Notes: generated by a model not told the origin, from the letters alone. A stretch of 64,000 nucleotides of DNA from an uncultured delta proteobacterium (GCA_963769935.1 CAVYNY010000003.1:32001-96000), one strand, 5' to 3'; numbered from the stretch's first letter, positions 2,707 through 32,697 are shown. Numbers and translations: made by a program.

Positions 2707-2785
2707 CACTGCCTTATTAATGTCTACCAGCAGTAAATCAACACCTTTTGAGCTCAGGCTTCAGACGGTGGGCTTCGTCAAAGCG

Positions 2786-16486: not shown

Positions 16487-16681
16487 CTACTGCGCAACCG
16501 AATTTTCGGCATATTTGGTGTCGCGCAGATACCGTTTCAGAATAATATTGCCGAGCAGGGTTCCCTTCTTGTAGCCCTTGACAAACTCAGTGACCACCGC
16601 CTTGAGTTTTGGGCTGTCCTTGCGAAAAGCCCAGGCGATCTCACCGCCGGTTCTCACGGCGATGTTCGGATGAACTAAGAT
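16487..16681 (-). pseudogene. Internal remnant of an MltF-like (substrate-binding + lytic transglycosylase) gene
   Basis: Manual translation ILVHPNIAVRTGGEIAWAFRKDSPKLKAVVTEFVKGYKKGTLLGNIILKRYLRDTKYAENSVAQ*. No start codon; resembles the SBP-to-SLT junction of MltF-type proteins. Confidence 0.6.
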
Positions 16682-16768
16682 TTGAGAATGTCCACTTAAA
16701 ATCCAATCAGGTCAGGTAAAGCAGACTTTAACCCTACCCTGCCGATCCCCTCTCCCTGGCATTTCTAT

Positions 16769-16797
16769 GTAGACCAATTTTATGACTGGCGCGTCTA
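16769..16797 (+). promoter_or_regulatory. Putative ECF sigma promoter, class A (GTAGAC-N17-CGTCTA)
   Basis: Same spacing and boxes as the copies at 26338 and 32573; upstream of the ECF sigma gene. Confidence 0.55.
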
Positions 16798-16955
16798 TAA
16801 GGTAAAAATCCGAAATTCATGCAAGCGGTCGATTTGGTAAGATTTTTTAGTTTGAAGGCGGATGGAAATCTGATGGTGGTTAAGTAAACATGGACAATTC
16901 AGATGCGGACCGGATATCATGAGTTTCAAATTGATGCAAAAAGTGTTGCCGCACA

Positions 16956-17606
16956 ATGTACAAACGTGATTTCCAAGCTCCTGAAATGGCTCCATCAGAT
17001 AAAACCACCACGACCTCTGAAACCTCCGACCAGCTGTTCTTGCTTGTTGAACAGGCTAAGGCAGGGAACCGCTCGGCCTTCGCCCAGCTGGCCGACCGAT
17101 TTCATGAAGATATTTATCGCATGGTTTACTACCGCATCAGATCCCGTCCCGATGCTGAGGATATTACCCAGGATGTGTTTTTAAAGATATTTCAAAAAAT
17201 ATCCGGCATCAAAGAGACGGCCAAGTTTCGCGGTTGGCTTTTTAGCATCACGCTGAACCGAATTCGGGATTTTCAGCGCAAAAAACGATTCCGGTCATTA
17301 TTCAAGGCCGAGGATGAAAGTATAGAGTCGCACGCGCCCGAACAAAGCGACCAAGATCAGCCTGATGCGCTGGACCATGTTTTAAAAAAGGATTTTTGGC
17401 GACAAATCGGTTTGATCCTGAACAAACTGTCAAAAATGGAAAAAGAAGTCTTTTTGCTGAGGTTTTTTGATCATCTCAGTTTAACTGAAATCGCGGGCGT
17501 CTTAAAAAAAAACGAAAGCACGGTCAAAACCCATCTGTATCGCGCGCTCGCCAAATTTAAAAGTGAACCCGCAATGCGACGCCTTCTCAATGAGGTTAAC
17601 AAGTGA
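16956..17606 (+). CDS. ECF RNA polymerase sigma factor
   Basis: Region 2 DAEDITQDVFLK...FRGWLFSITLN and region 4 LSLTEIAGVLKKNESTVKTHLYRA. Confidence 0.93.
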   Translation: MYKRDFQAPEMAPSDKTTTTSETSDQLFLLVEQAKAGNRSAFAQLADRFHEDIYRMVYYRIRSRPDAEDITQDVFLKIFQKISGIKETAKFRGWLFSITLNRIRDFQRKKRFRSLFKAEDESIESHAPEQSDQDQPDALDHVLKKDFWRQIGLILNKLSKMEKEVFLLRFFDHLSLTEIAGVLKKNESTVKTHLYRALAKFKSEPAMRRLLNEVNK

Positions 17607-18157
17607 ACTCAAATGACAACCACCATTTGGACGAGAATCAATTTATTAAAGCGGTAGTGGATGCATCCGACCTGCCGGAGGCCGTGCAGGCGCATTTGTT
17701 CACCTGCACTCAATGCCGGAACAGAAGGCAAAACTTTGAGCGGGAATTGACCAGTTTAGGCCAAATTGCCGGGCTGTCGGTACCGAAACCGCAAAGACGG
17801 ATCATTTTGCCGGCGCAAAAGTCCACAATCAGATTCTCAAGTTTCTTGGATTGGCGCAGCGTTATTGTGGCAGCGGCGACGGTTGCCGCTGTATTTATGG
17901 TTGTGTGGGGCACCAACATGGCACGCAATTTTTCCGAGCACCGAACCGAAAACCTGACAGCGGAAATACGGGATGCCAATCGACCCATGAGCGAAGTCAA
18001 CTCGCTTGTTGAAAATGCGCTGCCCCCATTTTATTTAGAAATCGCAGATGAACCAAAACCAGATTACGATGAAGAGTTTTATCAATTTTTGATTCCGCCT
18101 GTTGAAGATAAAACCGTAACCTCTGAGCAAGGGAATCGAGGAACTTCATTATGCTAA
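17603..18157 (+). CDS. Zinc-binding anti-sigma factor (ZAS-like) with one TM helix
   Basis: HLFTCTQC (HxxxCxxC), TM VIVAAATVAAVFMVVW; GTGA overlap with the sigma gene. Confidence 0.8.
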   Translation: MNSNDNHHLDENQFIKAVVDASDLPEAVQAHLFTCTQCRNRRQNFERELTSLGQIAGLSVPKPQRRIILPAQKSTIRFSSFLDWRSVIVAAATVAAVFMVVWGTNMARNFSEHRTENLTAEIRDANRPMSEVNSLVENALPPFYLEIADEPKPDYDEEFYQFLIPPVEDKTVTSEQGNRGTSLC

Positions 18158-18558
18158 GAAAGATATTCAGTGTCATCTTGCCGGTCATTTTTCTGGTTGC
18201 TCCATTGATTGCCGCGGCTCAGCACGGTCCAAGAGGCAAATGGTGGCATAACCCCCAGATTCAAAAGAATTTGAATTTGAACGAAAATGAAATCGGCAAA
18301 TTGGACCAGCTTTTTGCCAACATCCGCCCCAACCTGATCAAGCTTAAAACGGATGTCGAGCGCGAGCAATTTGAACTGGATCAACTCCTGAGCAAAAAAA
18401 AGGTCGACGATGCTGATGTTAAAAAGCAGTTCCAAAAACTGGAGCAAGCCCGTAAAAATCTTTCCAACGCACGCCTTGACTTTGTGATCGGCGTTCGCAA
18501 CATACTCGGTGCCGATCGCTTCCAGCAGCTCAAGTCCAACTTTCAGAAGTGGCAGTAG
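18151..18558 (+). CDS. Spy/CpxP/ZraP-like periplasmic protein
   Basis: Signal peptide, GKWW...LNLNENEI and terminal NILGADRFQQL (LTxxQ-like motifs); helical. Confidence 0.8.
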   Translation: MLRKIFSVILPVIFLVAPLIAAAQHGPRGKWWHNPQIQKNLNLNENEIGKLDQLFANIRPNLIKLKTDVEREQFELDQLLSKKKVDDADVKKQFQKLEQARKNLSNARLDFVIGVRNILGADRFQQLKSNFQKWQ

Positions 18559-18616
18559 AAAAAATTTTTCGCAACTCGGCCGGTAAGGACTTTTTTCTCC
18601 GTGGCACGGCAAAATT

Positions 18617-19366
18617 ATGGATCCGGCAGCAATTCTCGCTTCACGCGACATCCTGCAAAAAATAGAAACCGTTTGCAGTCGACAGTTCTCTGCTGAAAAC
18701 GACCGGGATGAGTGTTACATCTTCGTGCTTGACAGCCTCAAGGCCGACGATTTTAAGCGGCTGCGGGCCTTTAAAGGCAAAAGCAAATTATCCACCTATC
18801 TGTATTCTCTGATCAACTCCCTGGTTATTGATTTCAGACGCAAAAAATACGGCCGCCGGCGTGTCCCGGCCGCCGTGTTAAAACTCGGCAAGTGGGCTGA
18901 GGCAGTCTACCGGCTGGTGTGCTGGCAAAAGTTTTCCTTTGATGACGCCTATGATTTTCTGCGGGTTGACGGCCTGTATGACGGCAACTATGATCAGTTC
19001 ATACAGGAGATCGAGGCGATCCGGAATGCACCCTGCCGGGAAAATCCGACTTTTAAATCGATCGATGAACCAGACAGAAATTCGGTCCAGCATATGGAAG
19101 CTTCAGGCGCCGATCCGCTGGAGGACCTGATACAAGCGCTTGACAGGGAAAAAAGAATCACAGCCCTCAGGGTTATTCGCGCAACAACGGAGGCACTGCC
19201 GGAGCCCGATCAGATTCTGGTCAGGCTGGTGTTCGGCTCGGGGCAGCCGCTAAGTGCGGCTGCCAAAATCATCAACCTTTCTGCATCCGCAGCCCGCAAA
19301 CGGCTGCAGACTCTTTTATTAAAATACAGAGAAAGTTTGCTGGCCATTGGTATCCGCGAGCCGTAA
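18617..19366 (+). CDS. Atypical ECF-like sigma-70 family factor
   Basis: FKGKSKLSTYLYSLINSLVIDFRR (region 2) and LSAAAKIINLSASAARKRL (region 4 HTH), with a long insert between them. Confidence 0.75.
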   Translation: MDPAAILASRDILQKIETVCSRQFSAENDRDECYIFVLDSLKADDFKRLRAFKGKSKLSTYLYSLINSLVIDFRRKKYGRRRVPAAVLKLGKWAEAVYRLVCWQKFSFDDAYDFLRVDGLYDGNYDQFIQEIEAIRNAPCRENPTFKSIDEPDRNSVQHMEASGADPLEDLIQALDREKRITALRVIRATTEALPEPDQILVRLVFGSGQPLSAAAKIINLSASAARKRLQTLLLKYRESLLAIGIREP

Positions 19367-19379
19367 AATGTCCGTCTAA
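19350..19379 (+). promoter_or_regulatory. Putative ECF promoter, class B (GTATCC-N17-CGTCTAA)
   Basis: Shares atccgc...tgtccgtctaa with 20225-20253; overlaps the 3' end of the second sigma gene. Confidence 0.5.
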
Positions 19380-19435
19380 TTACTCTGCCTGATTATATTT
19401 TACTAGGTATGTTTAACAATTGAATAGAGGCAAAA

Positions 19436-20023
19436 ATGGGAAAATGGATCAATAAAAGCATGGCGCCAGCCGTTTCAGAGCAATCCGCTAATCATCCGGC
19501 CATCGAAGATATCGCGCGGCTGGCGGAAGGCAGGGTCGAGCAAGCTGAACGGGAACAATTCCTGCGCCATCTCAACCGATGCCAAAGATGCTACGAAATC
19601 CTGCAGGAAACCCTGATAGACATTGCCTCCGCCAGGCCTTTGCCAAAGGTTTCCGGTCCCTGGTGGAAATCCAAAATCTTTTATGCCTTGGCTGCCTCAA
19701 TTTTACTGGTCATTATCATCGGCGGGCGCCTGGTATTTGAACACCGCAATCAACATCCCCGGATCATAACCGCCACACTTGATATGGATCAGGAGTTAAA
19801 GGACATCCTGCTGGAAGGCGACACCCTGCGGTGGGAGAAGGGACCGCGGCTAAGCCGGCTGGTGGCTGCTCTGCACAAAAAAGGTCTGCAATTTAATGAT
19901 CTGAAAGCTGCTATCCTTGCGCAACCCTACTATCAGAAAAAAAGCCTGTTCGGTCCCGGGGAAGTCCTTCATATTCGCATCGAGAATGGCGTGGCCTATC
20001 TGAAGGTTAAAGAAAAAAACTAG
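19436..20023 (+). CDS. zf-HC2-type anti-sigma factor with a TM helix
   Basis: HP..EDIARLAEG...HLNRCQRCYE, then TM ALAASILLVIIIG. Confidence 0.8.
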   Translation: MGKWINKSMAPAVSEQSANHPAIEDIARLAEGRVEQAEREQFLRHLNRCQRCYEILQETLIDIASARPLPKVSGPWWKSKIFYALAASILLVIIIGGRLVFEHRNQHPRIITATLDMDQELKDILLEGDTLRWEKGPRLSRLVAALHKKGLQFNDLKAAILAQPYYQKKSLFGPGEVLHIRIENGVAYLKVKEKN

Positions 20024-20224
20024 CTTTATGCCCTGCAAATATATTTAAGTAGTCGACGGGAATACTCAATTAGAGTTGCAGCTTTGAACATAAAAAATTC
20101 CAAGCCCCAAATAACTGCTTTTTGGAATTTGAAATTTGCGATTTAGACCTACCTTGTCCCCTTCCCTCTATTCTCAATCCCTTTCGAAAAAAGACATCCC
20201 ACTCAAAAAAAAATAATGAATTAT

Positions 20225-20253
20225 TGATCCGCCATTACCATCTGTCCGTCTAA
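20225..20253 (+). promoter_or_regulatory. Putative ECF promoter, class B (TGATCC-N16-CGTCTAA)
   Basis: Near-duplicate of the 19350 motif; about 55 nt upstream of the 20309 start. Confidence 0.55.
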
Positions 20254-20308
20254 CAAGTTAAAAAGAAATCCTTCACTTTACCAACACAATGTCAAGAGGA
20301 GACCTGTC

Positions 20309-21157
20309 ATGTTAAAAGTGACGTTCAGCAGCTCGGCCCCGAATCCTCCAATTCGAACATGGCGTTGGGTGTTTCTTGGATTGGCCGTTTTTATTTTTAC
20401 TGTCCCGGGATTTCCGGCAGCTGCGAAACAACCCCCTACCATTCAGCTGTTTCCAACCACGGTGGTGGAAAATATCAAGCACACCGGAGAGGCGGCCAAA
20501 GCCATGGAACAGGACCTTCAGAGTGTGATTGACCGCCTGAATCAGCAGGAGGAGCTTTACCTGGCGAGCAAGTGCGAAGGGGCCGCAGCCGAACAGGGCT
20601 GCAATGAAATCGCCGGACAGCTGAGTCAAACCTATCTGGAGATGCTGACCTTGATGGAAACCCGCCTGCCGGGGATGGAGGATTCGGTCCGGGCCACGAA
20701 TACCAGCCTGGAAAGACGGATTCGCACGGAGTTGGGCCGCAAAACAACTCCCCGTGGTCTGCAAAAACTTGTAGATGGAACGCCGCAGCAATCAACTGAG
20801 TCTCCCCGCTACAAGCGAAGGGCGGGAAGACTGAGCGAAAAGTTCAGACAGTATTACAAACTGGTAGCCATGGCCCCCGGATCGGGCGCGGGTGGATCAC
20901 TGGCGGCAGTCGCCGCTGAAATTTACCTTGATACCCAGGAAGTGCAGGAACTTATTGCCCTCACCCGCGATGAAATCAGCCGCGCCAAACTCATGATTGA
21001 TCTCGATCAGGCATACGGCATCATCACGCCGGAAATGTTTGAGATGGTCGGCCGGGTGAAAACGATTATATTTGGCGAGACCGGAGAAGCGGAAGGCATA
21101 CCCAGTCCGCCGGCCGGCAGCGCTAAAGCAGAATATCGCAGCCCCCTTGAGATGTAA
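20309..21157 (+). CDS. Exported helical hypothetical protein
   Basis: Signal peptide ending PAAA-K, coiled-coil segments, a Cys pair; GAGGA RBS. Confidence 0.8.
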   Translation: MLKVTFSSSAPNPPIRTWRWVFLGLAVFIFTVPGFPAAAKQPPTIQLFPTTVVENIKHTGEAAKAMEQDLQSVIDRLNQQEELYLASKCEGAAAEQGCNEIAGQLSQTYLEMLTLMETRLPGMEDSVRATNTSLERRIRTELGRKTTPRGLQKLVDGTPQQSTESPRYKRRAGRLSEKFRQYYKLVAMAPGSGAGGSLAAVAAEIYLDTQEVQELIALTRDEISRAKLMIDLDQAYGIITPEMFEMVGRVKTIIFGETGEAEGIPSPPAGSAKAEYRSPLEM

Positions 21158-21194
21158 CTATGGAGGCGTTCGCCTATAACCGGAGGGTGTTATT

Positions 21195-21767
21195 ATGATT
21201 AAGCTACAAAGTAAAATGAATGCCTGGCGTTTCGACCAAATTTTTCTGATGTTGATAGTCCTCGCACTTTTTCCGGCGGCCTGCGGGAACCGGCAATATG
21301 TTAAACCCGGCTGCACGCTGCCTTCCGGCGTAAATCTTGAAGAAGCGTTGGCGCACTCAAGAGAAGATCTTGGGCACCTGGAGTGCGAAACCATGTTTGA
21401 CGGTTACTATATTAGACTCATTGAAGTCGCCAAACGCGACCCCGCAATACAAAACAAGCGCAAGTTCAGCGATTTTTTGGAATGGGCCAATGGGGAAGGC
21501 ATTATCGATAAGATCCAGGCTCGCGACTACTATAATCGCTACTTCAATACCACCTTCATGTCTCTGCCGGACGATTTTAATGTTTGCTCATCCTGCGCCG
21601 AGAAAACCCAAAAAGATCTCGAATCCCAGCTGGAAGAAGAACTCGGCCAGAAAGAAGAAGGGCTGTTGAGAGCGTGCCAGGATAAAAACGCCTATTACCT
21701 TGCGGCTGATCAATATAACTCCATCATGCTGCTGCTGGACGCCACCTGCACTGCCTGTCGGAACTGA
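21195..21767 (+). CDS. Cys-rich hypothetical lipoprotein
   Basis: Lipobox PAAC, plus CSSC, CTAC and additional Cys; GGAGG RBS. Confidence 0.8.
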   Translation: MIKLQSKMNAWRFDQIFLMLIVLALFPAACGNRQYVKPGCTLPSGVNLEEALAHSREDLGHLECETMFDGYYIRLIEVAKRDPAIQNKRKFSDFLEWANGEGIIDKIQARDYYNRYFNTTFMSLPDDFNVCSSCAEKTQKDLESQLEEELGQKEEGLLRACQDKNAYYLAADQYNSIMLLLDATCTACRN

Positions 21768-21791
21768 TATGACAAGCGAATGTCAGATAAT

Positions 21792-21909
21792 GCTGAGCAT
21801 CAGGACTGAATAACACGGACTGAGCAACGAGGACTGAGGACAGAGATGGAAAAAATTCGAGCGATGCAAACAGCGATACGTTCAGTCCTCAGCCCTCAGC
21901 CCTCATCAC
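21792..21909. repeat. Inverted pair of heptamer arrays (ggactga / tcagccc-type)
   Basis: Left arm gaggactgagga; right arm ttcagtcctcagccctcagccctca is its reverse complement. Confidence 0.65.
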
Positions 21910-21947
21910 TTTTTCGAGCAGAAACTAAATTTTAGGGAATTCATACG

Positions 21948-22661
21948 ATGGAAAACAGATCTCATTCCGTCACGGTCTTTTCAGCCGGCTTTATCACCGG
22001 CGCCCTGGGAGTGCTGGTTATCGGCGCTGCGATGCTTTACATGTTGAACATGTCTGAATTTGTTGCCATATCCGTGTTGAAAATTCCCAGGGTTCAAAGG
22101 GTGCTGACGTGGACCTATGAGAATCTCAGACTCTCGATCATCCCCTTTTTCTTTACTTCGCTGCTGTATACCGGCTCTCTTCTCCGCTTAAAGCGTTATC
22201 TGAAAGATCAGCGCACTCCGGTGGAAAAGATTGCCCAGAGCGAGCAGCTGGTTGATATCTGGATCAATCTATTCTTCGGGATCGGGGTAATTTGGACGGC
22301 CATCGGCATGCGCGGCGCCTTGCTGGACGGAGTCGGTGACTTGAATGCCCAATCGGCAGCACAGCTGGGCGCCTTTTCGATCCTGCAACGATTGGTGGAC
22401 GGCGGAATTTTGCTGGCATTATCCACCACCATCTTCGGTGCCGTCGGCGGCTATCTGCTGCGCCTGATTAAATCCATGGCGGTGGGTACCCAGGTGAAAG
22501 CTTATTACAATCGACTGGCAGAGCAGCAGGCCGACTCAGTTCATAAAGCCCTGCAATCCATCGACGGGCGGGTCCAGGAATTGGTGGGGATACAGAAAAA
22601 TTTAAATAACTTGGCGAACACAACCGATGAAGGTAAAGCTATCCGTCCGCCGGTTATTTAA
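21948..22661 (+). CDS. MotA/TolQ/ExbB-like membrane protein
   Basis: Four hydrophobic segments; LFFGIGVIWTAIGM and GGILLALSTTIFG resemble the two channel helices of the family. Confidence 0.6.
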   Translation: MENRSHSVTVFSAGFITGALGVLVIGAAMLYMLNMSEFVAISVLKIPRVQRVLTWTYENLRLSIIPFFFTSLLYTGSLLRLKRYLKDQRTPVEKIAQSEQLVDIWINLFFGIGVIWTAIGMRGALLDGVGDLNAQSAAQLGAFSILQRLVDGGILLALSTTIFGAVGGYLLRLIKSMAVGTQVKAYYNRLAEQQADSVHKALQSIDGRVQELVGIQKNLNNLANTTDEGKAIRPPVI

Positions 22662-22790
22662 AGAAATGCAGGCATCAGGTGTTGAGAAAAAGCAAAAATA
22701 TCAGAAAGGTTTCAATCCCTGCACACCGCAACGGACAATGGACAAACGACAGCGGACTTTGAATAATTGGCGCTCAATTTGGAGCAATCG

Positions 22791-23627
22791 ATGCACCCTT
22801 TATATCCATCGCCAATATCTCTTATCCGGCCCGAGGCTTCCTTTTCAAATGAGGTGGAAGTGCTGCAGACGGATGTCATGCGATTTTTTGCGATATTATG
22901 TCTGTGCCTGATGGCGATATTTGCTCTGGTCAAAACCCTGCCCATGGCCCCTTCGACCGGTCCTCCCACGATGGTCGAACCCACGGACCTTAAAGCAGAT
23001 GTCGAAGCTCTGCAAAAACACATTGCCATGCTCAAAGAGAGGCTTGGGCAGTTAAGGACCCAAGTTCAGGCCGCCGCCGTCGACGCCGAAAAATCAACGA
23101 CCGTGGCTGCCGTTGCGGAAAAAAAAATTAAAGATGAAACGCAACACCTGGCAGAGATACAGGCAAAACTGAAGCGGGAAAGAGTAAAATTGAATCAACC
23201 TCGGTCGGAGAAAAAACCGGCTGAAATATTACCGGCTGAGCAAAAAAATCCGCCGCCTCAGACCGTCAGGCAAGGATTCAGCTTGCGTTTTGCCTCGGAT
23301 GCGGCGCTGCAAAAGCTGATCGACAGCGGGAAAGTAAATTTTTATGCATTAGCCGGGAAAAAAGCCTGGCAATTGCACCTGAGAGACGGACAGCCGGTCT
23401 ATTCGTCGACCCGATTTCCCAGTCAAATTCATGAAATGCAGACTCCCACCGTTCCCACTGAGTATACCGGGGCTTTTCACCGGCAGGTAGCGGCGTTCGG
23501 CCGCACCACGGTGACCTGGGGGGTGACGCTGCCTTCCCCAACTATGTCATCCATTAACCAGCTCATCAAAAGCCGACCCGGGGGTGATCTGATCATCACC
23601 GCGGCCGGCGAGGTCGTTATAAAATGA
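22791..23627 (+). CDS. MotB/ExbD-like single-pass membrane protein with a coiled coil and an uncharacterised periplasmic domain
   Basis: QTDVMRFFAILCLCLMAIFALV, with Asp at the start of the TM helix. ATG 22791 follows a GGAG RBS. No OmpA motif. Confidence 0.55.
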   Translation: MHPLYPSPISLIRPEASFSNEVEVLQTDVMRFFAILCLCLMAIFALVKTLPMAPSTGPPTMVEPTDLKADVEALQKHIAMLKERLGQLRTQVQAAAVDAEKSTTVAAVAEKKIKDETQHLAEIQAKLKRERVKLNQPRSEKKPAEILPAEQKNPPPQTVRQGFSLRFASDAALQKLIDSGKVNFYALAGKKAWQLHLRDGQPVYSSTRFPSQIHEMQTPTVPTEYTGAFHRQVAAFGRTTVTWGVTLPSPTMSSINQLIKSRPGGDLIITAAGEVVIK

Positions 23628-25222
23628 CAACCACCAACAACATCGGGACCGGGATCCGGCCGTACATTTTACTCTTGATTTTTATAGGGTTGTCGGCCTG
23701 CAGCGGCCATCAGGTGTACCATGAAGTTGGACTGCCGGCCGGCGGATCGTCGCTTGATACCTGGCTGGAAGATACCCTTATTCCATACCTGCTCCAGCAA
23801 CTCAGCCAGCACCCGCGCTTTAAAGGCCAACCCATTTTGTTGGTCGGCCTGCGCGGCGATGAGGTCCGCTCCCGCGCAGATGACTTGACGGGAGAGATCC
23901 GATCAAAAATCGGCGACGCGCTGCTGAAACAACCCGGTCTCGATCTTGCCTGGCAACCGACCGGCCCGCCACGAGAACACCATCAACGTCTCGCGGATGT
24001 CTCCTGTGGCACTTACCGCAAAATCCAATATTACATCGGTCTGGACTGCGGTTTGACCCGATTGGAGGGCAAGCTTTATGTAAAAGTGCGGGCCTTGAAC
24101 CTTGCCGAACAAAAATGGGTGACCGGCTTCGGCAAATCATGGGAAGGGCGGCCGACCGCAGCCCAGCTGGCGGCTCTGGCGCGCGAACATCCGGATGAAT
24201 ATTTGCGGGGTCGGCGCCAGCTGCCGTTTTCCGAGGAGCAGCCGGATTTGTTGGCTGCCTATTTGGCCCGCAATCTAAGCTGTGTTTTGCGGCAGGCCGA
24301 ATCCGATAATCTGGTGGTGCATGTTGCCAAACCATCCGCAAATTCCCCGGCAGTCTTTAAAACGGCCCTGGAACTTGTGGGAAACTACCTGGCGCGTTTT
24401 CGGGAGGTGGAAGTAACCGATGATCCGAACCAGGCCAATATCACCCTGGTATGCGAAATCCATGCCATCCATCAAGGCTTGCACCAGATCTGGGTCTCTG
24501 CCAGACACCGCCGTGATGAAAAATATCTGCCCGGCGCAGAGACTGAAGCGTATGTGTTGATTGATGCCCATGAACAGATGCAGGTCGCCGGCGCGCAGAA
24601 TGCAAGACCTTATGCGCCCCTGCCCTCCGCCGCGCGCCTATCGAATTCATCTGAACTAATAGCATCATTTGATCTACTGACGCCGATGAATCAGAATTCA
24701 TGTTCAACCGGCGCTCCCTGGCAGTCTGGTGTACGGCGGATTGACTCCCAGGAACGTATTCCGGGCGGCGGCTGTCTGGCCGTAGAAATGACGCTTTCGG
24801 CGGCGGCTTATGTTTTTTTGGTGGGTCAGGATGCCGGTGGTGAATTAACGCAAATGTTTCCATCTGTCTGCACCGGCCGGCAGGAAAATGATGCCCTGCT
24901 CCATCCCGGTCAGCTATTTCAATTTCCATCACTTTCAGATCCCAACGCCGGGGTACTGGAACTTACCGGTTCGCCCGGCAGGGAACGGGTTTTTGCAATT
25001 GCCATAACAAGCCCGGATCTGGCCGATCGATTTGCCGACCGGCTGGTGGAAGTCCAGGACCTGTGCCGACCCGGCAAAATATTTGCCGATAACCTAATAG
25101 CCGGTAATAGCCGAACCTCTGCCGAAGGTATTTATCAATGGCAAGACTACTTGATCCGGCTTTCGGCTGATAATCCCGGTTTGGTCCAGTGGCAGGCAAT
25201 CAGCTTCTGGCACGAGCCGTAG
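23624..25222 (+). CDS. Lipoprotein with a C-terminal DUF4384-like domain
   Basis: Lipobox LSAC; AYVFLVGQDAGGELTQMFP...PGRERVFAIA fits the DUF4384 pattern; ATGA overlap. Confidence 0.75.
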   Translation: MTTTNNIGTGIRPYILLLIFIGLSACSGHQVYHEVGLPAGGSSLDTWLEDTLIPYLLQQLSQHPRFKGQPILLVGLRGDEVRSRADDLTGEIRSKIGDALLKQPGLDLAWQPTGPPREHHQRLADVSCGTYRKIQYYIGLDCGLTRLEGKLYVKVRALNLAEQKWVTGFGKSWEGRPTAAQLAALAREHPDEYLRGRRQLPFSEEQPDLLAAYLARNLSCVLRQAESDNLVVHVAKPSANSPAVFKTALELVGNYLARFREVEVTDDPNQANITLVCEIHAIHQGLHQIWVSARHRRDEKYLPGAETEAYVLIDAHEQMQVAGAQNARPYAPLPSAARLSNSSELIASFDLLTPMNQNSCSTGAPWQSGVRRIDSQERIPGGGCLAVEMTLSAAAYVFLVGQDAGGELTQMFPSVCTGRQENDALLHPGQLFQFPSLSDPNAGVLELTGSPGRERVFAIAITSPDLADRFADRLVEVQDLCRPGKIFADNLIAGNSRTSAEGIYQWQDYLIRLSADNPGLVQWQAISFWHEP

Positions 25223-25400
25223 AGAAAGGACACTAATTGTATTTGAATTGAAAATACTCTGCTGCCGATGTCGGAAGGATCCATTTTGACCAAATGGCGC
25301 AAGGCAGACGGCGCAGGGTATTTGTGCTCGTCTTAATATGATGCCATTAGCTCGGGTAACAGGTAGTCCATGAGGTGCAGTTCACAACCGGTAACCCGAG

Positions 25401-25465
25401 ACACGCACCTCGTAAGCCGAAACACGTAACTCGCAACCCGTAACTCGCAACCCGTAACTCGCAAC
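25401..25465. repeat. Heptamer-period tandem array (cgtaact/cgcaacc)
   Basis: cgtaactcgcaacc repeated about three times immediately before the ATG at 25466. Confidence 0.75.
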
Positions 25466-26289
25466 ATGACTCAACTGCACATTATCACTAAACTAATTAT
25501 CTGCCTGGCCTTGCTTGGATATGGTCAACAGGCGGCAGGCGCCCTTAAAGAAGCCGGATCGGATATTGAGGCGCTGTGGCGCCTTTTTCTGGCCAACGAT
25601 GCGCTGAAATCCCCTGTGATCAGTTTCCCTTATGATCACTGTTTTAATACGGCCGCCCAAAAATATGATCTACCTTTATCACTTCTTCTGGCCGTGGCGC
25701 GCGGTGAATCCGACTTTAATCCCAGAGCCCGGTCGGATCGCAACTGCCACGGATTGATGCAAATCCAGTGGCCCGGAACAGCCAAACATCTGGGAATCTA
25801 TCGACTTGCGGCGCTGTATGAGCCGTGCACCAATATTAGCGCCGGAGCCCGATATCTGAGGGAGCTTATGGACCGCTATGATCAAAATCTGCATCTGGCC
25901 CTGGCGGCATACAACTACGGGCCGAATCGCATCCAGCCCAAAGCCGGACCGGGCCGTATTCCTCAGGGCGCCCAATGGTACAGCGGCTATATTTACCATC
26001 ACCTGGAATTTGTCACCCAGGGGGGGACGCCGCATCCGGCGGCGCAGCGGGCAAAGGGTCGGCCTACGGCCGTGAAAAGCGGCTGGCAATCATAACGTTT
26101 AACCGGCCATATCGAGCGAGCGCATTTTACCGGCACCTTCAAGAACAGGCACCTGCGCTGAAACTCGATTGGTATCGTATCGGTTTGGGAAGGTTTCAGG
26201 TGGTGATGCGGTTCACGGATAAAAAAGCACTGGAAGCCGGCCGCAAAAAATTAAGAACTCTGGGAGTGATCGTCAAAGCCAGGAAATGA
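25466..26289 (+). CDS. Lytic transglycosylase (SLT domain) with a C-terminal SPOR-like tail, frameshifted at a G7 run
   Basis: ARGESDFNP, GLMQI, ALAAYNYGP. The frame continues in ORF 25975..26289 if one G is added at 26020-26026. Confidence 0.85.
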
Positions 26290-26337
26290 GATGGAATGCC
26301 GGACCAATGATGTTGAAAAAATCAGCTAAATTATTTT

Positions 26338-26364
26338 GTAAACCTTTTTTTAACCTTATACGTC
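26338..26364 (+). promoter_or_regulatory. Putative ECF promoter, class A (GTAAAC-N17-CGTC)
   Basis: Same boxes and spacing as 16769 and 32573; upstream of the caspase genes. Confidence 0.5.
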
Positions 26365-26440
26365 ACACTCAATAGAAATTTTTTGTTATATAGTTTCATA
26401 TGAGCGCCGCGGCTCTGAGAGCGTCATCTGATAGTGGAAG

Positions 26441-26615
26441 AAATTCGATGTAGTTTTATAAGTGCCCTCACCGCTGAGAGTCACAGAGAGCGCAGAGATT
26501 ACATTAAAATTTTCTTTCGTCGGCGTTCTCGGCAGGCTCTGCGGTGAACTATCAGTTTCTTTTTCGATCAGATCGGCCGTTGTTTTGACAATGCGGCTTT
26601 GGCGCTGAAACCTGA
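26441..26615 (+). repeat. Dispersed MITE-like intergenic element, copy 1
   Basis: Aligns by eye to the reverse complement of 38455-38663 (aaattcgatg...ctcaccgctgagag...ggtgaactat...gatcag.cggccgttgttttg...gctgaaacctga). Confidence 0.8.
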
Positions 26616-26733
26616 CATCTGTTAACCTAATTTTTGCAATTTTAAATTATCAACGTTCTCAACTTCTCCCGAATAGAGTCTTGGAAAATGCAAGGGGCAA
26701 AATACCTAAAAAGCAAAAATTAGCGGAGTTCTT

Positions 26734-28158
26734 ATGGCTGACAAAAATAAAAAGCTCGGCGGTTTTTGGTCCTATCTTCTCTGGCTGCTGCTGATGTCAT
26801 TGGTCCTCGTTTCAACCTCCAGGGGTGAAGATCGGGCCCTGCTGATCGGTGTCGGACGGTATGCGCATTTCGAAGAAAAGCTCAACGGCGTCAGTCTGGA
26901 TCTCGGCATGATGAAAGAATTATCACAACTGATGGGATTTAAGGAACATGCAATTAAGGTGCTGGAAAATGAGCAGGCATCTACCGCCGGGGTTAATGAG
27001 GCGATTGAAGACTGGTTGATTCGGGGCACCGGACCGCAGGACCGGGTCCTGTTTTATTTCAGCGGGCACGGCTCCCAGGTTCCGGATGAAAACAACGATG
27101 AAAAGGATCATTTTGATGAAGTGCTGCTGCTCTATGATGTGACCCTCACGGAAAGGCAAGGCCGGCAGACATTGAACGGTGTTTTGCTCGATGATCAATT
27201 CGGCAGCATGCTGGCAAAAATCAAAAGCCGCAACATTCTGGTCATTCTCGATGCCTGCCACAGCGGCAGCGCAACCAGGAGCATCCGGCTGACCACCCGG
27301 TCTATTCCGATACACAACGCTCAGGTGAAATACTTCTATTATTCGCCGATGCTGGAGGCAGCCGGCGGCAGCGGCCGGTTCGATGTGATGGAGCCGGATG
27401 CTTCACCGGCGGCTGCAGGCCGCTATGTGGCAATTTCGGCCTGCCGCGACGATGAGATGACGCTTGCCACCGCCCAGGGAAGCATATTCACACTCGGGCT
27501 GCGCGAGACCTTGCGTGCGGCGGCCAGGGCCGGAAAAAGCATTTCGCCCGCAGAATTACAGCGCCGGACGACCCGATTCATTCAGGAACAAATAGGATCC
27601 GAAGGGGCTGCATTTCATCCCCAGATTGCCGGCCAAAAATCCCTTCTTGAGCGTCCTTTGGAACTGGTCTCACTTGCCGGAGGAAGCGGCCCGGTGCGTC
27701 AAAATCTGGAAGCATTGATGCATAAAAGCCATGAAACCGTCTGGATCAATTTAAACAAAATCTGTTTTGAACCTGGCGACGTACTTGAAATATCCGTCAG
27801 ATTATCCGAACCGGGGTATTTGAATGTCGTCAGTGTTCGTCCGGATGATCAGGCCACGGTGCTGTTTCCAAACCAATATCACCGACAGAATGCCGTTGAC
27901 CGGGGCGCGTTGACCCTACCCACCCGTCAGATGAACTTTGAATTGGTGGCCGACGGCCCCCCGGGCACCATTCTGATAACGGCCTTTCTGACCCCTTCAC
28001 CGGTGGACGGCTACAAAAACGGCTTCAAGACCCCGGAGGATGTGATGGCGGGTCTCTCACCCGGTACAACGCGCTCCTTGATGCTGCGCCAAAACCAGGA
28101 CTGGCTGGCCGCCGGCAGGGTAGCCGTTGAAATGCGGGAAAAAGGAGGATGCAGGTGA
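26734..28158 (+). CDS. Exported caspase-family (peptidase C14) protease with C-terminal DUF4384
   Basis: Signal peptide; RALLIG, FYFSGHGS (His), ILDACHSG (Cys); PGDVLEISV...GYLNVVSV...VLFPN...GPPG fits DUF4384. Confidence 0.9.
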   Translation: MADKNKKLGGFWSYLLWLLLMSLVLVSTSRGEDRALLIGVGRYAHFEEKLNGVSLDLGMMKELSQLMGFKEHAIKVLENEQASTAGVNEAIEDWLIRGTGPQDRVLFYFSGHGSQVPDENNDEKDHFDEVLLLYDVTLTERQGRQTLNGVLLDDQFGSMLAKIKSRNILVILDACHSGSATRSIRLTTRSIPIHNAQVKYFYYSPMLEAAGGSGRFDVMEPDASPAAAGRYVAISACRDDEMTLATAQGSIFTLGLRETLRAAARAGKSISPAELQRRTTRFIQEQIGSEGAAFHPQIAGQKSLLERPLELVSLAGGSGPVRQNLEALMHKSHETVWINLNKICFEPGDVLEISVRLSEPGYLNVVSVRPDDQATVLFPNQYHRQNAVDRGALTLPTRQMNFELVADGPPGTILITAFLTPSPVDGYKNGFKTPEDVMAGLSPGTTRSLMLRQNQDWLAAGRVAVEMREKGGCR

Positions 28159-29036
28159 AATATTTTTTCAAGTTTATCGCTGTCTTGTCGCTAATAATTT
28201 TTACCTGTATTCCCGTGGCGACCCGTATTTCAGCTGCTATGGACTGCCGTCTGGGTGCTGATTACTACTACCAGGCCAAATCCGAAGCCGATCCGCAGCA
28301 GGCTATCCTCTGGTTGAAGCGGTCGGCGCAAGTATGCCCCAATTTCAATGCCTGGTATATGCTCGGGATGATATACACCCGCCAAGGAGAAATTGATCCC
28401 GCCATGGCCGCTTTTATGCGGGCCAGGACCCAGGCTGTTTCCTCCAAAACCGAAGCCCTGGCCCTGGCCCGCCAGGGCGAACTGCTGGCCCGCTCCGGTC
28501 AGCTGCCCCGGGCCCAGCAGGCCCTGGAACTGGCTGGACGGTTTTATCCTGCACCTGCGCCGGCTTGGCTGGAGGCATCTCTTAAGAATACCAGAATTAA
28601 ACTGCAGCAGTCGCTGATAACAGCAGCCGATATCAAGTATGTACTTGAATCCGGCACGCAATTAAGCAAAGACGGCCGATTTGCGGTTCGCCCGGCAGTG
28701 AACCTGCCGGTGCACTTTGACTTCGACCGGGCGGATCTGAATTCAGCCGGCAGCCGTCAGGTGATGGAACTGGGTGGTGCCCTTTCCCACGCAACATTGA
28801 AGCAGTGGTCTTTTCTGCTGGTCGGCCATACCGACAAGCGCGGATCCATGGCCTACAATCAGACGCTCTCCGAAAGTCGCGCCTCTTCGGTAAGGATAGA
28901 ATTGGAACACAGCTTTCCTTCGCTCATCGGCAGGCTGCAAGCCATGGGACGCGGCGAGACCGAATTACTGTACGACGGCGACAGCGAAGAAGATCATATG
29001 CTCAATCGCCGCGTGCAGGTGACGCTTTATCATTGA
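28149..29036 (+). CDS. TPR + OmpA-family peptidoglycan-binding protein
   Basis: Signal peptide; TPR-like AWYMLGMIY...; VHFDFDRADL, VGHTD, NQTLSESRA, NRRV. Confidence 0.9.
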   Translation: MQVKYFFKFIAVLSLIIFTCIPVATRISAAMDCRLGADYYYQAKSEADPQQAILWLKRSAQVCPNFNAWYMLGMIYTRQGEIDPAMAAFMRARTQAVSSKTEALALARQGELLARSGQLPRAQQALELAGRFYPAPAPAWLEASLKNTRIKLQQSLITAADIKYVLESGTQLSKDGRFAVRPAVNLPVHFDFDRADLNSAGSRQVMELGGALSHATLKQWSFLLVGHTDKRGSMAYNQTLSESRASSVRIELEHSFPSLIGRLQAMGRGETELLYDGDSEEDHMLNRRVQVTLYH

Positions 29037-29217
29037 AAATTGAAGATTGAAGATTGAAGATTGAAGATTTATGGAGTCGCCTCGCTCCAACTTTCAATTT
29101 AAATATTTTCAAAACCAAATCCGTTTGCAGCAAGATGTTTAATTGATAATGCGATATTTAAAATTTTGGCTAAAATCGATAGGATTCCGCCAATTTTCAA
29201 TCTTCAATTTTCAATAA
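29032..29217. repeat. Element bounded by inverted heptamer arrays (ttgaaga)n / (tcttcaa)n
   Basis: Left arm attgaaaattgaagattgaagattgaagattgaagatt, right arm caattttcaatcttcaattttcaat; internal ggagtcgcctcgctcc. Confidence 0.75.
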
Positions 29218-29254
29218 ATTACATTTCACCCTGATTAGGAATCTGTTTGTACCA

Positions 29255-32200
29255 ATGATTAGAGGACATAAAAAAATAGCGCTGTTGACGATATTGCTCT
29301 GGCTGGCCGGCGGCATTTCCCTGCCTGCCCTTGCTGAAAATCATGCCCTGCTGATCGGTATCGGCAAATACCGGCAGCGCACACTGGAGGGGCCGCCCTA
29401 TGATGTTGCGGCGCTTTCTCGAGTGCTTGCGGCGCAGTATGATTTTCAAAAGGAAAATATCCGTACGCTCGTAAATGAAGAAGCCGTCAAGTCCAGAATC
29501 CTTTCTGAGATCGAGCGTCTGACGCATCACACCCATCCCGGAGACCGGGTATTCATTTATTTCAGCGGTCACGGAACCAGCCGCCGGGATGAAGTGCTGG
29601 CGCTTCCGCTGCCGTACAGCACCGGTGCGCTGGTGCCGGCTGATTTTGAGGCTGATCCCGCTCAACCGGTTGAAAAACTGCTGTCGCAGCTGATCATCGG
29701 CAGACGCGACCTGCGGCCGGCGCTGGAGCGACTTGATCGGGACCGACAGGTCCTGATGGTTTTTGATACCTGTTTTTCAGGCAATACCATCCGAGCCATT
29801 GGAAATCATAAAACCGCAAATTTAAGCCGCTACCTCCCGCTGCCGTCAAGAAGTGTCTTCAAAGCGGAGCGGGAAATTGGAAGCTTTGAGGAAAATTTGA
29901 ATCTGGATGACCCATATCCCTATCAAAATATTTTTTATATTTCGGCGGCTTCGGAAAATGAAGTCGCCAAGGATATCCAAAAAGATACCTTGGACTTATA
30001 TCCGACCATTGACGGCAATCCCCATGGGGTTCTGACGGACGCCCTTTTAAGGGTGCTGGCGGGACAAATGCGCGTCGACACCGACAACGACGGCCGGTGG
30101 AGCCAGATTGAGCTGTATGCGGCTGTCAAAAAAGAGGTTCAACGGCGCTTCCAACAATCGCCGCAGGCCTTGCCCAAGGTAGGGACCCGCACCGATCGGC
30201 TGTATTCGAGAACCTTTTTTGTGCGTTCGGCAAAAGCGGTTGCCACAGCAGGCGGGCACCCGGCCGAACCGGCGCCCGGCCGCCAGGGCGCGAATTATCA
30301 ATCGGGTTATTCTTCTTCCCATGCGCTGGTGGTTGGCATAAACGAATATCGACACTGGCCGCGGCTCGAATATGCCGCCAATGATGCCAGGGCAATGGCC
30401 GCCAGGTTGAAAGCACAGGGCTTTCAGACTTACCTGCTCACCGATGAGCAGGCCACGCTGAAAAATATTCTGGCCGGACTGGAAACGATTCGCCGCAGCA
30501 TTGATGAGAATTCACGGATGATGTTCTATTTTGCCGGGCACGGTCAGACCGAGGACCTGCCTGGAGGACGGGAAAGAGGGTATATCGTGCCGGTGGATGC
30601 GGATGCCTACAACTGGCAGCGTACGATGCTGCCCATGGATCGGTTGAATCAAACTATCAGGCAGTTCAAAGCCAAACATATCCTTATGGCCTTTGACTCC
30701 TGTTACTCCGGACTGGGGTTGACTCGCTCGATAAAAGGTCGTCCCGATCCGGATTCCGCCTACATTCAGAAAATGATGCACTCCCGAAGTATTCAGATAC
30801 TGACAGCGGGCAGCCGTTCCGAGCAGGCCATTGAAGCTGCCGGCCACGGACTGTTCACGGACCAACTGCTGGCCGCCCTCGCGGGGGCGGCGGATATTAA
30901 TTCCGACGGATACATTACGGCGACCGAAATTTATGCCACCCTGCGTCCGGCCATAACCCAGAAGTCCTATAGCCGCCAGACCCCGCAGTTCGGCTATATC
31001 GAGGGCAACGGCGATATTATTTTTCTTAATACTTCCCGCGAACCAGAACCTGCCGCCGTTGTTGTTGATACTGCAATTAGCGGCATCGACGTATGGGCCG
31101 GCACCTCTGAAATCGGTCACCGCCTGCCGGCCGGACGGCATCAGTTACCGGCTCTTGCGGGGCAAACAGCTCTGATCGTTAAAAAGGGCGGACGCACCCT
31201 TTATCGAAAGAATGTGCTGCTGTCCGCCAACAGGGTGTTTTCAATCCAGATCGGCGCAACCATTGCGACATCACACCCGCCGGAAGCATTTTCCACGATT
31301 ACTATTGCCAATCATAGCGTCGACAATTATTCAAATTCGATTGCCTATGATCTGGACGGTGACGGCCGGGAGGAGATGGTGACCGCCTCGGATAACCGGC
31401 TTTTTGCTTTCAGGTCCGACGGCACCATCATCTGGGAAAAAAAATTCCATTTCCCGATCACCTTGGATCTGATTGATGACTGGAATTCGCAGCCGGCCAT
31501 TGGGCTGTCCGCCGTGAATGAGGATACAGTTCACCTGGTGCTGCTTGACCAGCGGGGAGAGCAAATTTGGCAGCATGTCCGAAAACTTACCCGCTATTAC
31601 AACGGCAAAACCGACGGCGGGGGAAAGATTGCCGGGCTGGCGGACGTCGACCGGGACGGCCGCCAGGACGTCGTGGCCTTTGCCACGGCAGAATACACCT
31701 TAAAGCCCCGCGGCATCATCGTGTACGACGGTCGTGCCCGTGAACTGTGGCGCTACACAATCGGACCCGCTCCACAAAGCATCGTTGTCTGGCAAAAAGA
31801 TTCAGGACGACCCGACATCATCATCGGAACGTACAGCCCGGGCGACGGAAATCGCGACTTAACCAACAACACCAGCGATATGCAAACCTACATCATCAGT
31901 GTCGACGGTTTTGGCAAAGCAAACTGGCAGATCCCGGTCGGCGGGTTTTACAGCGGGGTTGTCGTGCTGCCGGCCGGTCTGAAGGACCCTGCCCGTCGCT
32001 TTCTTTACGCCCATACCTATACGTCATCTCTTTATCGGGAAGATGTCGGCGCCATATATAAGATCTCACGATCCGGTCAAGTTCTTAATCGCTTTGAGAC
32101 CCAAAATTCAATTTTAAGTGTGGCGGTTGCTGAAGCTGACCAAAATGGACGGGAATATCTGTATGCGGCCGATAACAAGGGCAACCTGTTAAGACTGGAT

Positions 32201-32563
32201 GAGCGCTTGAATCTGCTCCAGAGAAAGCCCTTGACTGCTGGACCGGCTGCTTCCCAGGTCAGACTGGTGGGGGTTCATGATTATGACGGCGATGGTTATA
32301 AAGACCTATTGCTTTACTCCTTTAATCGCCTGCTGTCCGCCAAGAATCCTCTGGCAGAAACGGGTCCGAATGACGCCGGGTTCTTCTCCCAGTTAAAGTT
32401 TCAGGTCATTTCAAAGGACTTTTCCAGGGTTTTGAAGAGTGTAACCATTGCCGCAGAATGGGAAAAATGGCGGGGATTTGCCGTCAAGGACCTGGACCGA
32501 CCGGATACGACGTATTATCCGTTTATGGCACTGAGCGATAAATTAACGATATTTAACTACTAA
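29255..32563 (+). CDS. Exported tandem double-caspase (two C14 domains) protein with a C-terminal FG-GAP/VCBS-like beta-propeller
   Basis: Signal peptide; dyads FSGHG/FDTCFSG and FAGHG/FDSCYSG; repeats DLDGDGREE, DVDRDGRQD, DYDGDGYKD. Confidence 0.9.
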   Translation: MIRGHKKIALLTILLWLAGGISLPALAENHALLIGIGKYRQRTLEGPPYDVAALSRVLAAQYDFQKENIRTLVNEEAVKSRILSEIERLTHHTHPGDRVFIYFSGHGTSRRDEVLALPLPYSTGALVPADFEADPAQPVEKLLSQLIIGRRDLRPALERLDRDRQVLMVFDTCFSGNTIRAIGNHKTANLSRYLPLPSRSVFKAEREIGSFEENLNLDDPYPYQNIFYISAASENEVAKDIQKDTLDLYPTIDGNPHGVLTDALLRVLAGQMRVDTDNDGRWSQIELYAAVKKEVQRRFQQSPQALPKVGTRTDRLYSRTFFVRSAKAVATAGGHPAEPAPGRQGANYQSGYSSSHALVVGINEYRHWPRLEYAANDARAMAARLKAQGFQTYLLTDEQATLKNILAGLETIRRSIDENSRMMFYFAGHGQTEDLPGGRERGYIVPVDADAYNWQRTMLPMDRLNQTIRQFKAKHILMAFDSCYSGLGLTRSIKGRPDPDSAYIQKMMHSRSIQILTAGSRSEQAIEAAGHGLFTDQLLAALAGAADINSDGYITATEIYATLRPAITQKSYSRQTPQFGYIEGNGDIIFLNTSREPEPAAVVVDTAISGIDVWAGTSEIGHRLPAGRHQLPALAGQTALIVKKGGRTLYRKNVLLSANRVFSIQIGATIATSHPPEAFSTITIANHSVDNYSNSIAYDLDGDGREEMVTASDNRLFAFRSDGTIIWEKKFHFPITLDLIDDWNSQPAIGLSAVNEDTVHLVLLDQRGEQIWQHVRKLTRYYNGKTDGGGKIAGLADVDRDGRQDVVAFATAEYTLKPRGIIVYDGRARELWRYTIGPAPQSIVVWQKDSGRPDIIIGTYSPGDGNRDLTNNTSDMQTYIISVDGFGKANWQIPVGGFYSGVVVLPAGLKDPARRFLYAHTYTSSLYREDVGAIYKISRSGQVLNRFETQNSILSVAVAEADQNGREYLYAADNKGNLLRLDERLNLLQRKPLTAGPAASQVRLVGVHDYDGDGYKDLLLYSFNRLLSAKNPLAETGPNDAGFFSQLKFQVISKDFSRVLKSVTIAAEWEKWRGFAVKDLDRPDTTYYPFMALSDKLTIFNY

Positions 32564-32572
32564 CAGACGACG

Positions 32573-32601
32573 GTAAACAAAATCGACGCGTCGTGCGTCT
32601 A
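32573..32601 (+). promoter_or_regulatory. Putative ECF promoter, class A (GTAAAC-N17-CGTCTA)
   Basis: Matches the 16769 motif; about 95 nt upstream of the glycine-zipper gene. Confidence 0.55.
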
Positions 32602-32697
32602 TCAGGCTAAAATTCGACAAACCAAAACCTATGGGAACCGGCACACTGCGGGTGTCCGGCAATCAACCAGCCGCTGCACAGAAAGGAGGACGTCCAG

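Follow-up and report, generated by a model that had tools for sequence, protein, structure and literature searches.

Two classes of conserved promoter-like elements and a predicted two-tier sigma-factor circuit at a caspase/outer-membrane gene cluster of an uncultured Desulfobacterales bacterium

Among the hallmarks of extracytoplasmic function (ECF) sigma factors listed in PMC8103513 are an AAC in the -35 element, a CGT in the -10 element, a linker of <50 residues, an adjacent anti-sigma gene and autoregulation; the same source describes non-canonical EcfG paralogues without autoregulation, and PMC7776599 gives a spacer of 16-18 bp and states that about half of the ECFs autoregulate. We explored a 64,000-nt stretch (the window) of the genome of an uncultured delta proteobacterium (GCA_963769935.1, CAVYNY010000003.1:32001-96000; C3:32001-96000 of genome G000, 7.99 Mb in 41 contigs), which carries a caspase/outer-membrane gene cluster of Desulfobacterales with all genes on the plus strand between 16.9 and 33.1 kb. 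This cluster includes the genes of two sigma factors, here called sigma1 and sigma2 (as distinct from the σ2 and σ4 protein domains), and five motifs of two classes, A and B. Judged by their conservation across related loci, these motifs are real cis elements, and we consider it likely, with some reservation, that they act as promoters of two specificities; sigma1 is predicted to read class A and sigma2 class B, an assignment that we infer from position and co-occurrence.

Sigma1 resembles canonical ECF modules of the E. coli RpoE-RseA and B. subtilis SigW-RsiW type in its architecture (σ2 plus σ4 domains with a linker of <50 residues; TIGR02937 score 101.8 bits), in the HxxxCxxC membrane protein whose gene overlaps its 3' end, in an AAC/CGT promoter with a 16/17-nt spacer upstream of its own operon, and in its predicted targets, which are exported or envelope proteins. 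Unlike those modules, the sigma1 module is exchangeable or lies elsewhere in the genome, and its predicted regulon includes caspase-like C14 proteins. Sigma2 recalls ECF cascades, being an ECF-type sigma gene predicted to stand under the promoter of another sigma, either as a member of its operon (5 linked genome loci) or by way of a class A site directly upstream (2 loci). Unlike these cascades and the EcfG paralogues, sigma2 has a structured insert of ~90 residues, a -35 without AAC, and a predicted promoter placed between the sigma and anti-sigma genes, so that only the anti-sigma, and not sigma2 itself, would be under sigma2 control. To our knowledge, no case with this exact layout has been described.

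The class A pattern GTARAC-N17-CGTC had exactly three matches in the window, at 16769, 26338 and 32573, all on the plus strand and just where an earlier note on this DNA had reported them, upstream of sigma1 (P_sig1), of the caspase-like gene casp474 (P_casp) and of a glycine-zipper gene (P_glyzip) (Table 1). Their number exceeded chance (3 vs 0.06 expected; 0/100 shuffles reached 3), and three matches on one strand of 15.8 kb correspond to a Poisson P of ~6e-6, for a pattern defined post hoc. Each of the five sites of the two classes lies between genes or at the end of one and points to a plus-strand gene downstream. To compare related loci, we used sigma2 orthologues of 57-71% identity, found in 11 of the 22 genomes sampled from the genus of G000 and in a single genome from another family (15/41 genomes if G000 and weak matches are counted), and the loci amounted to 10 fetched relatives, syntenic with the window from sigma2 through to the glycine-zipper gene, 7 taken from named genome records and 80 from a metagenome scan.

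Across these loci, TGTAGAC-N16/17-CGTCT preceded sigma1 in 5/5 linked loci, in both unlinked orthologues and in 15/15 metagenome loci, and a GTCGAC variant stood before all three sigma1-like modules of 44-47% identity. Before casp474, TTTTGTAAAC-N16/17-CGTCA was present in 10/10 loci, one of them with GTAATC, and information content was concentrated in the -35 (1.86 bits per position) and -10 (1.75) rather than in the spacer (0.85) or flanks (0.50-0.64). GTA(A/G)AC with CGTC was found in 27/27 and 32/32 collected class A instances, all with spacers of 16 or 17 nt, giving the consensus TGTA(A/G)AC-N16/17-CGTC. Conservation in orthologous loci, against spacers and flanks that diverge, thus holds for the sigma1 and caspase sites, as it does for the two class B sites described below, but only in part for the glycine-zipper site, which the earlier note had grouped with them and which was present in 3/6 loci having that gene. 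An 8-mer footprint computed blind to the motifs found conserved words only before anti-sigma2, g282, casp474 and sigma1, and suggests that these positions also mark likely operon boundaries. No Rfam family was found in the region, and both sigma-70-type sites (17 vs 14.9 expected) and terminators (22 vs 21.8) scanned there were at chance level. Among the matches listed by a literature search on GTAAAC/CGTC with a sigma factor, all were of the primer type.

When both strands of the whole genome were scanned, matches to the strict class A pattern were not enriched (33 vs ~30 expected at equal base frequencies), so that a finer look was needed. The flanked pattern TGTARAC-N16/17-CGTCW had 11 genome matches, of which 8 lay outside open reading frames (ORFs) of at least 150 aa, a compartment representing 22% of the genome, vs 0/4, 1/5 and 3/13 intergenic matches for wrong-spacer controls (4/22 in total; Fisher p = 0.005). 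A class A weight matrix gave 18 genome matches, 12 of them intergenic, and its spacer controls 1/0, 9/1 and 4/3 (matches/intergenic), a result that is partly circular because sites of the window itself were among those used to train the matrix. Class A therefore shows a genome-wide intergenic excess only at the right spacer, and the background check put forward in the earlier note came out against the bare motif but in favour of its flanked form. In G000, at least four to five class A sites elsewhere precede unlinked secreted-protein genes: a DUF6600 secreted protein (contig C14), two small secreted proteins rich in His and Tyr (C20 and C32), a protein with GGGHY repeats and, after it, a weak glycine-zipper lipoprotein (C31), and a class III cytochrome c (C18). 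Matches at C1:36480 and C9:228038, without a plausible downstream gene, were judged to be chance, as was a class A-like minus-strand match in the PocR gene (window 16296-16322), in which CGCC replaces CGTC. Both other ECF genes of G000 (contigs C13 and C28) lacked a class A motif upstream.

Some further observations were made around these sites. The cytochrome c gene (C18:282406-282931, or L073 307-832) is split over two frames, with the signal peptide in one and four CxxCH motifs in another, by frameshift or assembly error. The leader between P_sig1 and sigma1 contains a conserved word (window 16880-16900; GTTAAGTAAACATGGACAA in the window, GTTAATATAGACAAG in relatives), also found in L018, L019, L021, L024, L055, L057, L058 and L060, and a leader 8-mer, TAGACAAG, is present in 5/6 loci. 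The untranslated stretch from P_casp to casp474 (window 26365-26733) measures ~370 nt, compared with ~390 nt in L018 and 89-181 nt in other loci. Metatranscriptome data from 3 runs of a single study were placed on 16500-33500 as contigs only, 95-99% alike, and stretches without RNA contig cover (e.g. 22737-24437) carry no weight; at window 16772 the contigs of this related strain read A for G, which turns the P_sig1 hexamer into GTAAAC, and the R position therefore differs between strains.

Class B, which the earlier note had written as ATCC-N16/17-CGTCTAA, had exactly two window matches, at 19352 and 20227 (2 vs 0.02 expected; 0/100 shuffles reached 2), so that the claimed pair is likewise above chance: one site lies between sigma2 and anti-sigma2 (P_asig2), the other before g282 (P_g282). 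Its invariant part, TGTCCGTCTA, occurs six times in G000 against ~15 expected; two of the six lie in the cluster, 874 bp apart, and two are inside long ORFs. Between sigma2 and anti-sigma2, GTCCGTCTA was present in 20/20 genome loci and in 74/75 metagenome loci, the remaining one having a single mismatch, and TGTCCGTCTA preceded g282 in 17/17 genome and 25/25 metagenome loci. In G040, whose sigma is 27% identical, the exact 9-mer GTCCGTCTA stands between the sigma and an HxxxCxxC protein, and Desulfobacter curvatus (39% identity) has TGTCCGTATA, with one mismatch, between its sigma2-like and anti-sigma2-like genes; no class B block was found at the distant sigma2-like loci L015 and L017 of G036, L015 having only CGTCA. 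Class B tracks sigma2 down to 27% protein identity. Moreover, where insertions of 1.5-4.7 kb follow anti-sigma2 (L020, L022, L027), the block remains 60-90 nt before g282.

The ATCC proposed as the class B -35 did not stand, being kept in 2/20 loci before anti-sigma2, where it belongs to Ile-Arg codons at the sigma2 end (in the window, 19352-19355 inside sigma2 codons), and in 3/17 before g282. P_g282 has instead a consensus aaaaATTGACC, 17 nt before CGTC and lacking AAC, the exceptions being L025 and L053 with TTGAAC or TTGAAA. The predicted class B promoter consists of a weak ATTGAC-like -35 and an invariant TGTCCGTCTA -10. A sigma-70 reading of P_g282, from TTGAC(A/C) and TCTAAT, was rejected, needing a 19-nt spacer and a C at the key second -10 position and leaving the invariant TGTCCG unexplained. 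As to the inserts, they span 4138-6542 in L020, 3906-8618 in L022 and 2267-3827 in L027, that of L022 having an opposite-strand GAF-domain gene. G000 contains a third intergenic TGTCCGTCTAA (C30:21524-21534, minus strand), with GAACA at the -35 position; the ORF that begins 66 nt downstream is membrane-permease-like and the next one ABC-ATPase-like (both named by eye), and the site may represent either another target of sigma2 or a chance match.

All sigma1-family modules examined have class A upstream, in keeping with a canonical ECF sigma that autoregulates, and it is promoter position (7/7 genome and 15/15 metagenome loci) that points to positive autoregulation of sigma1. Family matches of the putative anti-sigma1 were weak (NF052375 E 1.4e-4, below cut-off; zf-HC2 E 0.08), and the CpxP/Spy-like gene accompanies sigma1 in linked and unlinked loci. 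In the complete genome G041, the sigma1-anti-sigma1-CpxP-like module lies with its promoter ~870 kb from the cluster. No sigma1 module was found in G013, G010, G001, G005 and G025; four or five of 5 genomes without a sigma1 orthologue have, divergent from sigma2, another operon (the sigma1' frame of L023 being only 168 aa, and the fetched stretch of L027 holding only the first operon gene), which encodes a small His/Tyr-rich secreted protein, a sigma called sigma1', and an HxxxCxxC protein. The promoter of this operon, TGTAAACC-N16/17-CGTCTAAA, was present in 5/5 genome and 17/17 metagenome loci, and its TGTAAACC resembles the SigW -35, ATTGAAACCTTT, as given in PMC8103513. Sigma1 and sigma1' are 30-33% identical overall and have in common the recognition-helix stretch TVKTHL(Y/F)RA; no sigma1' was found in G000. 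Upstream of sigma2, 42 testable metagenome loci had a sigma1 module (18), a sigma1' module (15), a class A site alone (1) or none of these (8). Class A would thus be tied to an exchangeable first-tier sigma, and the caspase promoter is kept whichever sigma is present.

Sigma2 is a less typical factor. It passed TIGR02937 narrowly (45.3 bits vs a cut-off of 42.9), and its homologues form 328 clusters, of which those named belong to the sigma-70 family. In its AlphaFold2 (AF2) model (predicted local distance difference test, pLDDT, 80.7), the σ2 domain ends at ~80 and the σ4 domain starts at ~167-178, with confident helices at 85-136 and a disordered segment at 146-164 in the insert; VIA alignments matched residues 178-246 to E. 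coli sigmaE region 4 (Z 10.1, root-mean-square deviation 1.5 over 69) and residues 1-78 to the SigE N-domain (Z 7.8). Sigma1 aligned weakly with the sigma2 profile in hhalign (probability 19%), and the σ4 helices of the two differ. While the -10 assigned to sigma2 holds CGT and an adjacent HxxxCxxC gene is present, sigma2 departs from canonical ECFs in the -35 AAC, the linker of <50 residues and positive autoregulation: GTCCGTC, CCGTCTA and CGTCTAA were absent within 700 nt upstream of sigma2 in 19 of 19 loci, and GTCCGTCTA was absent upstream of sigma2 in all 80 metagenome loci. The description of both sigmas as ECF factors thus holds in the canonical sense for sigma1 but not for sigma2, with its ~90-residue insert and no upstream class B site. 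The gap between the sigma1 operon and the sigma2 gene behind it measures 23-129 nt across the 5 linked genome loci and 58 nt in this genome, where sigma1-driven expression is therefore plausible; two loci have a class A site 233-401 nt before sigma2.

Residues H45, C49 and C52 of anti-sigma2 are invariant in 13 orthologues (zf-HC2 E 0.016). The order sigma2, class B element, HxxxCxxC gene recurs in G040 and D. curvatus, and the sigma plus HxxxCxxC layout also in G036. Directly before the sigma2 homologue of G040, a genome from another family of the order, lies a CHAT-domain (caspase-fold) gene (L014, minus strand 2194-3399; Pfam E 1e-54), which links the sigma2 family to caspase-fold proteases in two lineages. 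In D. curvatus DSM 3379 (L054 2986-5764), the sigma2-like and anti-sigma2-like genes are followed by a convergent 442-aa gene, the C-terminal part of which matches the DUF4384 region of casp474. At the place expected for the Shine-Dalgarno sequence of sigma2 (window 18599-18616), the window reads cacggcaaaattATG and relatives share gtg..cGGCAAaatt, a word also found in L022, L024, L025, L027 and L048, which might be a translation-control element.

Another described system comparable to sigma2 is sigma-28 (FliA) with FlgM. In the sigma-28 consensus, as in class B, a weak -35 is combined with a long and conserved -10 in which CCG occurs. Sigma2 is similar to FliA in length (249 aa vs about 240), and FliA region 4 was the best PDB sequence match of its profile (E 7.8e-5). 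VIA alignments of sigma2 to the three-domain sigmas FliA, SigB, WhiG and RpoS covered ~128-146 residues, no longer than those to ECFs, a coverage that does not single out a σ3 domain in the insert. Unlike FliA, sigma2 has an ECF-like region 2 motif, LYSLINSLVIDFRRKK, and ECF-like best domain matches, and its partner is an HxxxCxxC membrane protein rather than FlgM. As a tentative proposal, somewhat less probable than its alternatives taken together, sigma2 may represent a distinct sigma family with ECF-like domains around a structured insert, never positively autoregulated and driving its own zinc-finger anti-sigma from an intergenic promoter with the 11-nt extended -10 TGTCCGTCTAA (kept to 27% identity, in another family and beside a CHAT protease); it would form the fixed second tier under a swappable class A module (sigma1, sigma1' or an unlinked sigma1) and couple envelope stress to a caspase-like protease/OmpA/TolQ-like apparatus in Desulfobacterales.

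In the circuit that these positions would predict, an envelope signal would free sigma1 from its membrane HxxxCxxC anti-sigma, and sigma1 would then activate P_sig1 and thereby its own operon; in this genome the transcript would likely continue into sigma2, which is most likely expressed from P_sig1. Sigma1 would also drive the caspase-OmpA-caspase operon via P_casp, the glycine-zipper gene and several unlinked secreted-protein genes. Sigma2 would drive the operon from g282 to the SLT gene and, from the promoter between both genes, anti-sigma2, providing negative feedback and no positive autoregulation. The upstream tier would be exchangeable, consisting of sigma1 beside sigma2, of sigma1 elsewhere or of sigma1' with the same promoter type. 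The cascade from sigma1 to sigma2 envisaged in the earlier note is in line with promoter positions and with the place of sigma2 behind the sigma1 operon, but the glycine-zipper site is variable, and the cascade is not self-contained as had been claimed, because sigma1 modules are distant (~870 kb in G041) or replaced by sigma1' and G000 has unlinked class A sites.

Several observations weigh against the proposed assignment. The relatives are largely of one genus, which makes the conservation counts non-independent, and a single RNA contig crosses P_sig1, in contigs that carry no 5'-end information. GTAGAC is found in 21/22 sigma1 own-promoter instances and P_casp has mostly GTAAAC, even in genomes with sigma1, so that one sigma must accept both. 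No class A site was found within 700 nt upstream of sigma2 in 18/20 loci, and the link from sigma1 to sigma2 must therefore be by operon or lineage-specific. As for class B, the P_asig2 -35 lies in coding sequence, out of register with the P_g282 -35, and a TTGA-like -35 is missing from 5/17 P_g282 sites. The CGTC core is common to both classes, and TGTC-CGTC is also found at the class A site of G000 contig C32 and at the G041 P_casp. Finally, no sigma other than sigma2 is constant at the locus, and P_casp persists in two incomplete genomes, G025 and that of L045, in which neither sigma1 nor sigma1' was found.

These last points, together with the reading of P_casp in G041 as TGTCCGTCAT, which has a class B-like TGTC extension, would be explained if sigma2 read P_casp, alone or besides class B, leaving sigma1 and sigma1' with only their own operons and small secreted proteins. 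We regard this as unlikely: the genomes without sigma1 are incomplete, and the P_casp -35, TTTTGTAAAC, is strongly conserved and the same as in the sigma1' autoregulatory promoter, unlike the -35 of P_g282.

Slightly less probable still, in our estimate, is that the class B block is an operator of another regulator or an RNA-level signal, with sigma2 acting on other targets. An invariant block of 10-11 nt is long for a -10 element, its -35 is weak or absent at the 5/17 P_g282 sites and confounded by coding sequence at P_asig2, and in 16/20 loci its distance to the start of anti-sigma2 is fixed at 23-24 nt. Over all loci, however, the distance from block to start codon ranges from 23 to 243 nt at P_asig2 (63-243 nt outside the fixed group) and from 43 to 197 nt at P_g282, and this variability favours a promoter over a translation signal. 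The block is non-palindromic and identically oriented at its two positions, is without Rfam match, and contains the CGT core described in PMC8103513 as typical of ECF -10 boxes; most P_g282 sites have an A-tract and ATTGAC at a constant 17-nt spacing before CGTC. That one sigma1-type factor reads both classes, with the -35 tuning strength and sigma2 inactive or in an unrelated role, is very improbable, since the shared CGTC(T/A)(A/T) and a hybrid site on G000 contig C32 (class A -35 with TGTCCGTCTAA) are set against a class B that follows sigma2 where the fetched stretches show no sigma1 (G040, D. curvatus) and is almost confined to its vicinity (in G000, two of six TGTCCGTCTA here and two within long ORFs), against differing σ4 helices, and against a sigma2 that is conserved across its 328 homologue clusters and is modelled with a sigma-factor fold.

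Under the preferred assignment of class A to sigma1 and class B to sigma2, the sites delimit two predicted target operons (Table 1). The class B operon shows synteny in 10 relatives, without any conserved 8-mer in its internal intergenic gaps. Its designation as a motor module in the earlier note is tentative, its support being weak TolQ/ExbB fold matches: against stator families, g237 had no Pfam match at E up to 5 and no PDB sequence match, and its model (pLDDT 64) matched TolQ, ExbB, MotA and ZorA chains in Foldseek only at E 0.14-0.6 and TM 0.2-0.3. A literature search pairing ECF sigma factors with DUF4384 found no paper.

Table 1 Coordinates in the window of sigma-factor modules, promoter elements and predicted targets.
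Feature	Coordinates	Strand	Description
P_sig1, class A promoter	16768..16798	+	TGTAGAC 16768-16774, 17-nt spacer, CGTCTAT 16792-16798
sigma1, canonical ECF sigma, 216 aa	16956..17606	+	Pfam Sigma70_r2 46-111, Sigma70_r4_2 149-200, Sigma70_ECF
putative anti-sigma1	17603..18157	+	HxxxCxxC (HLFTCTQC), predicted membrane segment; 4-nt overlap with sigma1
exported CpxP/Spy-like protein, third gene of the sigma1 module	18151..18558	+	Metal_resist PF13801 E 2.7e-9
sigma2, non-canonical sigma-70-family factor, 249 aa	18617..19366	+	σ2/σ4 domains, partly structured ~90-residue insert
P_asig2, class B element	19350..19379	+	invariant TGTCCGTCTAA 19369-19379, starting 3 nt after the sigma2 stop codon
putative anti-sigma2	19436..20023	+	HxxxCxxC, predicted membrane segment, C-terminal domain
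P_g282, class B promoter	20224..20253	+	TTGATC 20224-20229, 17 nt to CGTC, TGTCCGTCTAA 20243-20253
predicted class B operon	20309..26095	+	g282, g190, g237 (membrane), g286 (coiled coil), g532 (DUF4384), SLT transglycosylase
P_casp, class A promoter	26337..26366	+	TGTAAAC 26337-26343, 17-nt spacer, CGTCAC 26361-26366
predicted class A operon	26734..32563	+	caspase-like C14/DUF4384 474 aa, TPR-OmpA 295 aa, double caspase-like C14/FG-GAP 1102 aa; Pfam, synteny
P_glyzip, class A-like, lineage-variable	32573..32601	+	GTAAAC, 17-nt spacer, CGTCTA
glycine-zipper protein, 145 aa	32698..33135	+	PF13441, PF13488

Taken as a kind of system, this is ordinary ECF stress signalling, and the understanding of ECF regulation is not overturned; three variations are noteworthy: the first tier is exchangeable, the second sigma is non-canonical, and a predicted promoter separates the gene of that sigma from that of its anti-sigma. 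With only negative feedback and a long -10, the layout of sigma2 could interest builders of orthogonal sigma switches. Three sigmas and five promoters represent a compact set of parts that would lend themselves to tests in E. coli, with no need to culture the organism, and D. curvatus, which is cultured, offers a possible experimental handle. For the uncultured sediment Desulfobacterales in which the cluster of caspase-like C14 proteins, an OmpA/TPR protein and a membrane module occurs, the motifs yield an operon map (anti-sigma2 alone; g282 to SLT; casp474 to casp1102, optionally extended to the glycine-zipper gene) and a predicted inducing pathway, envelope-stress-type ECF signalling. The swapping of the upstream sigma with unchanged target promoters would make this locus a clean natural case of regulatory rewiring.

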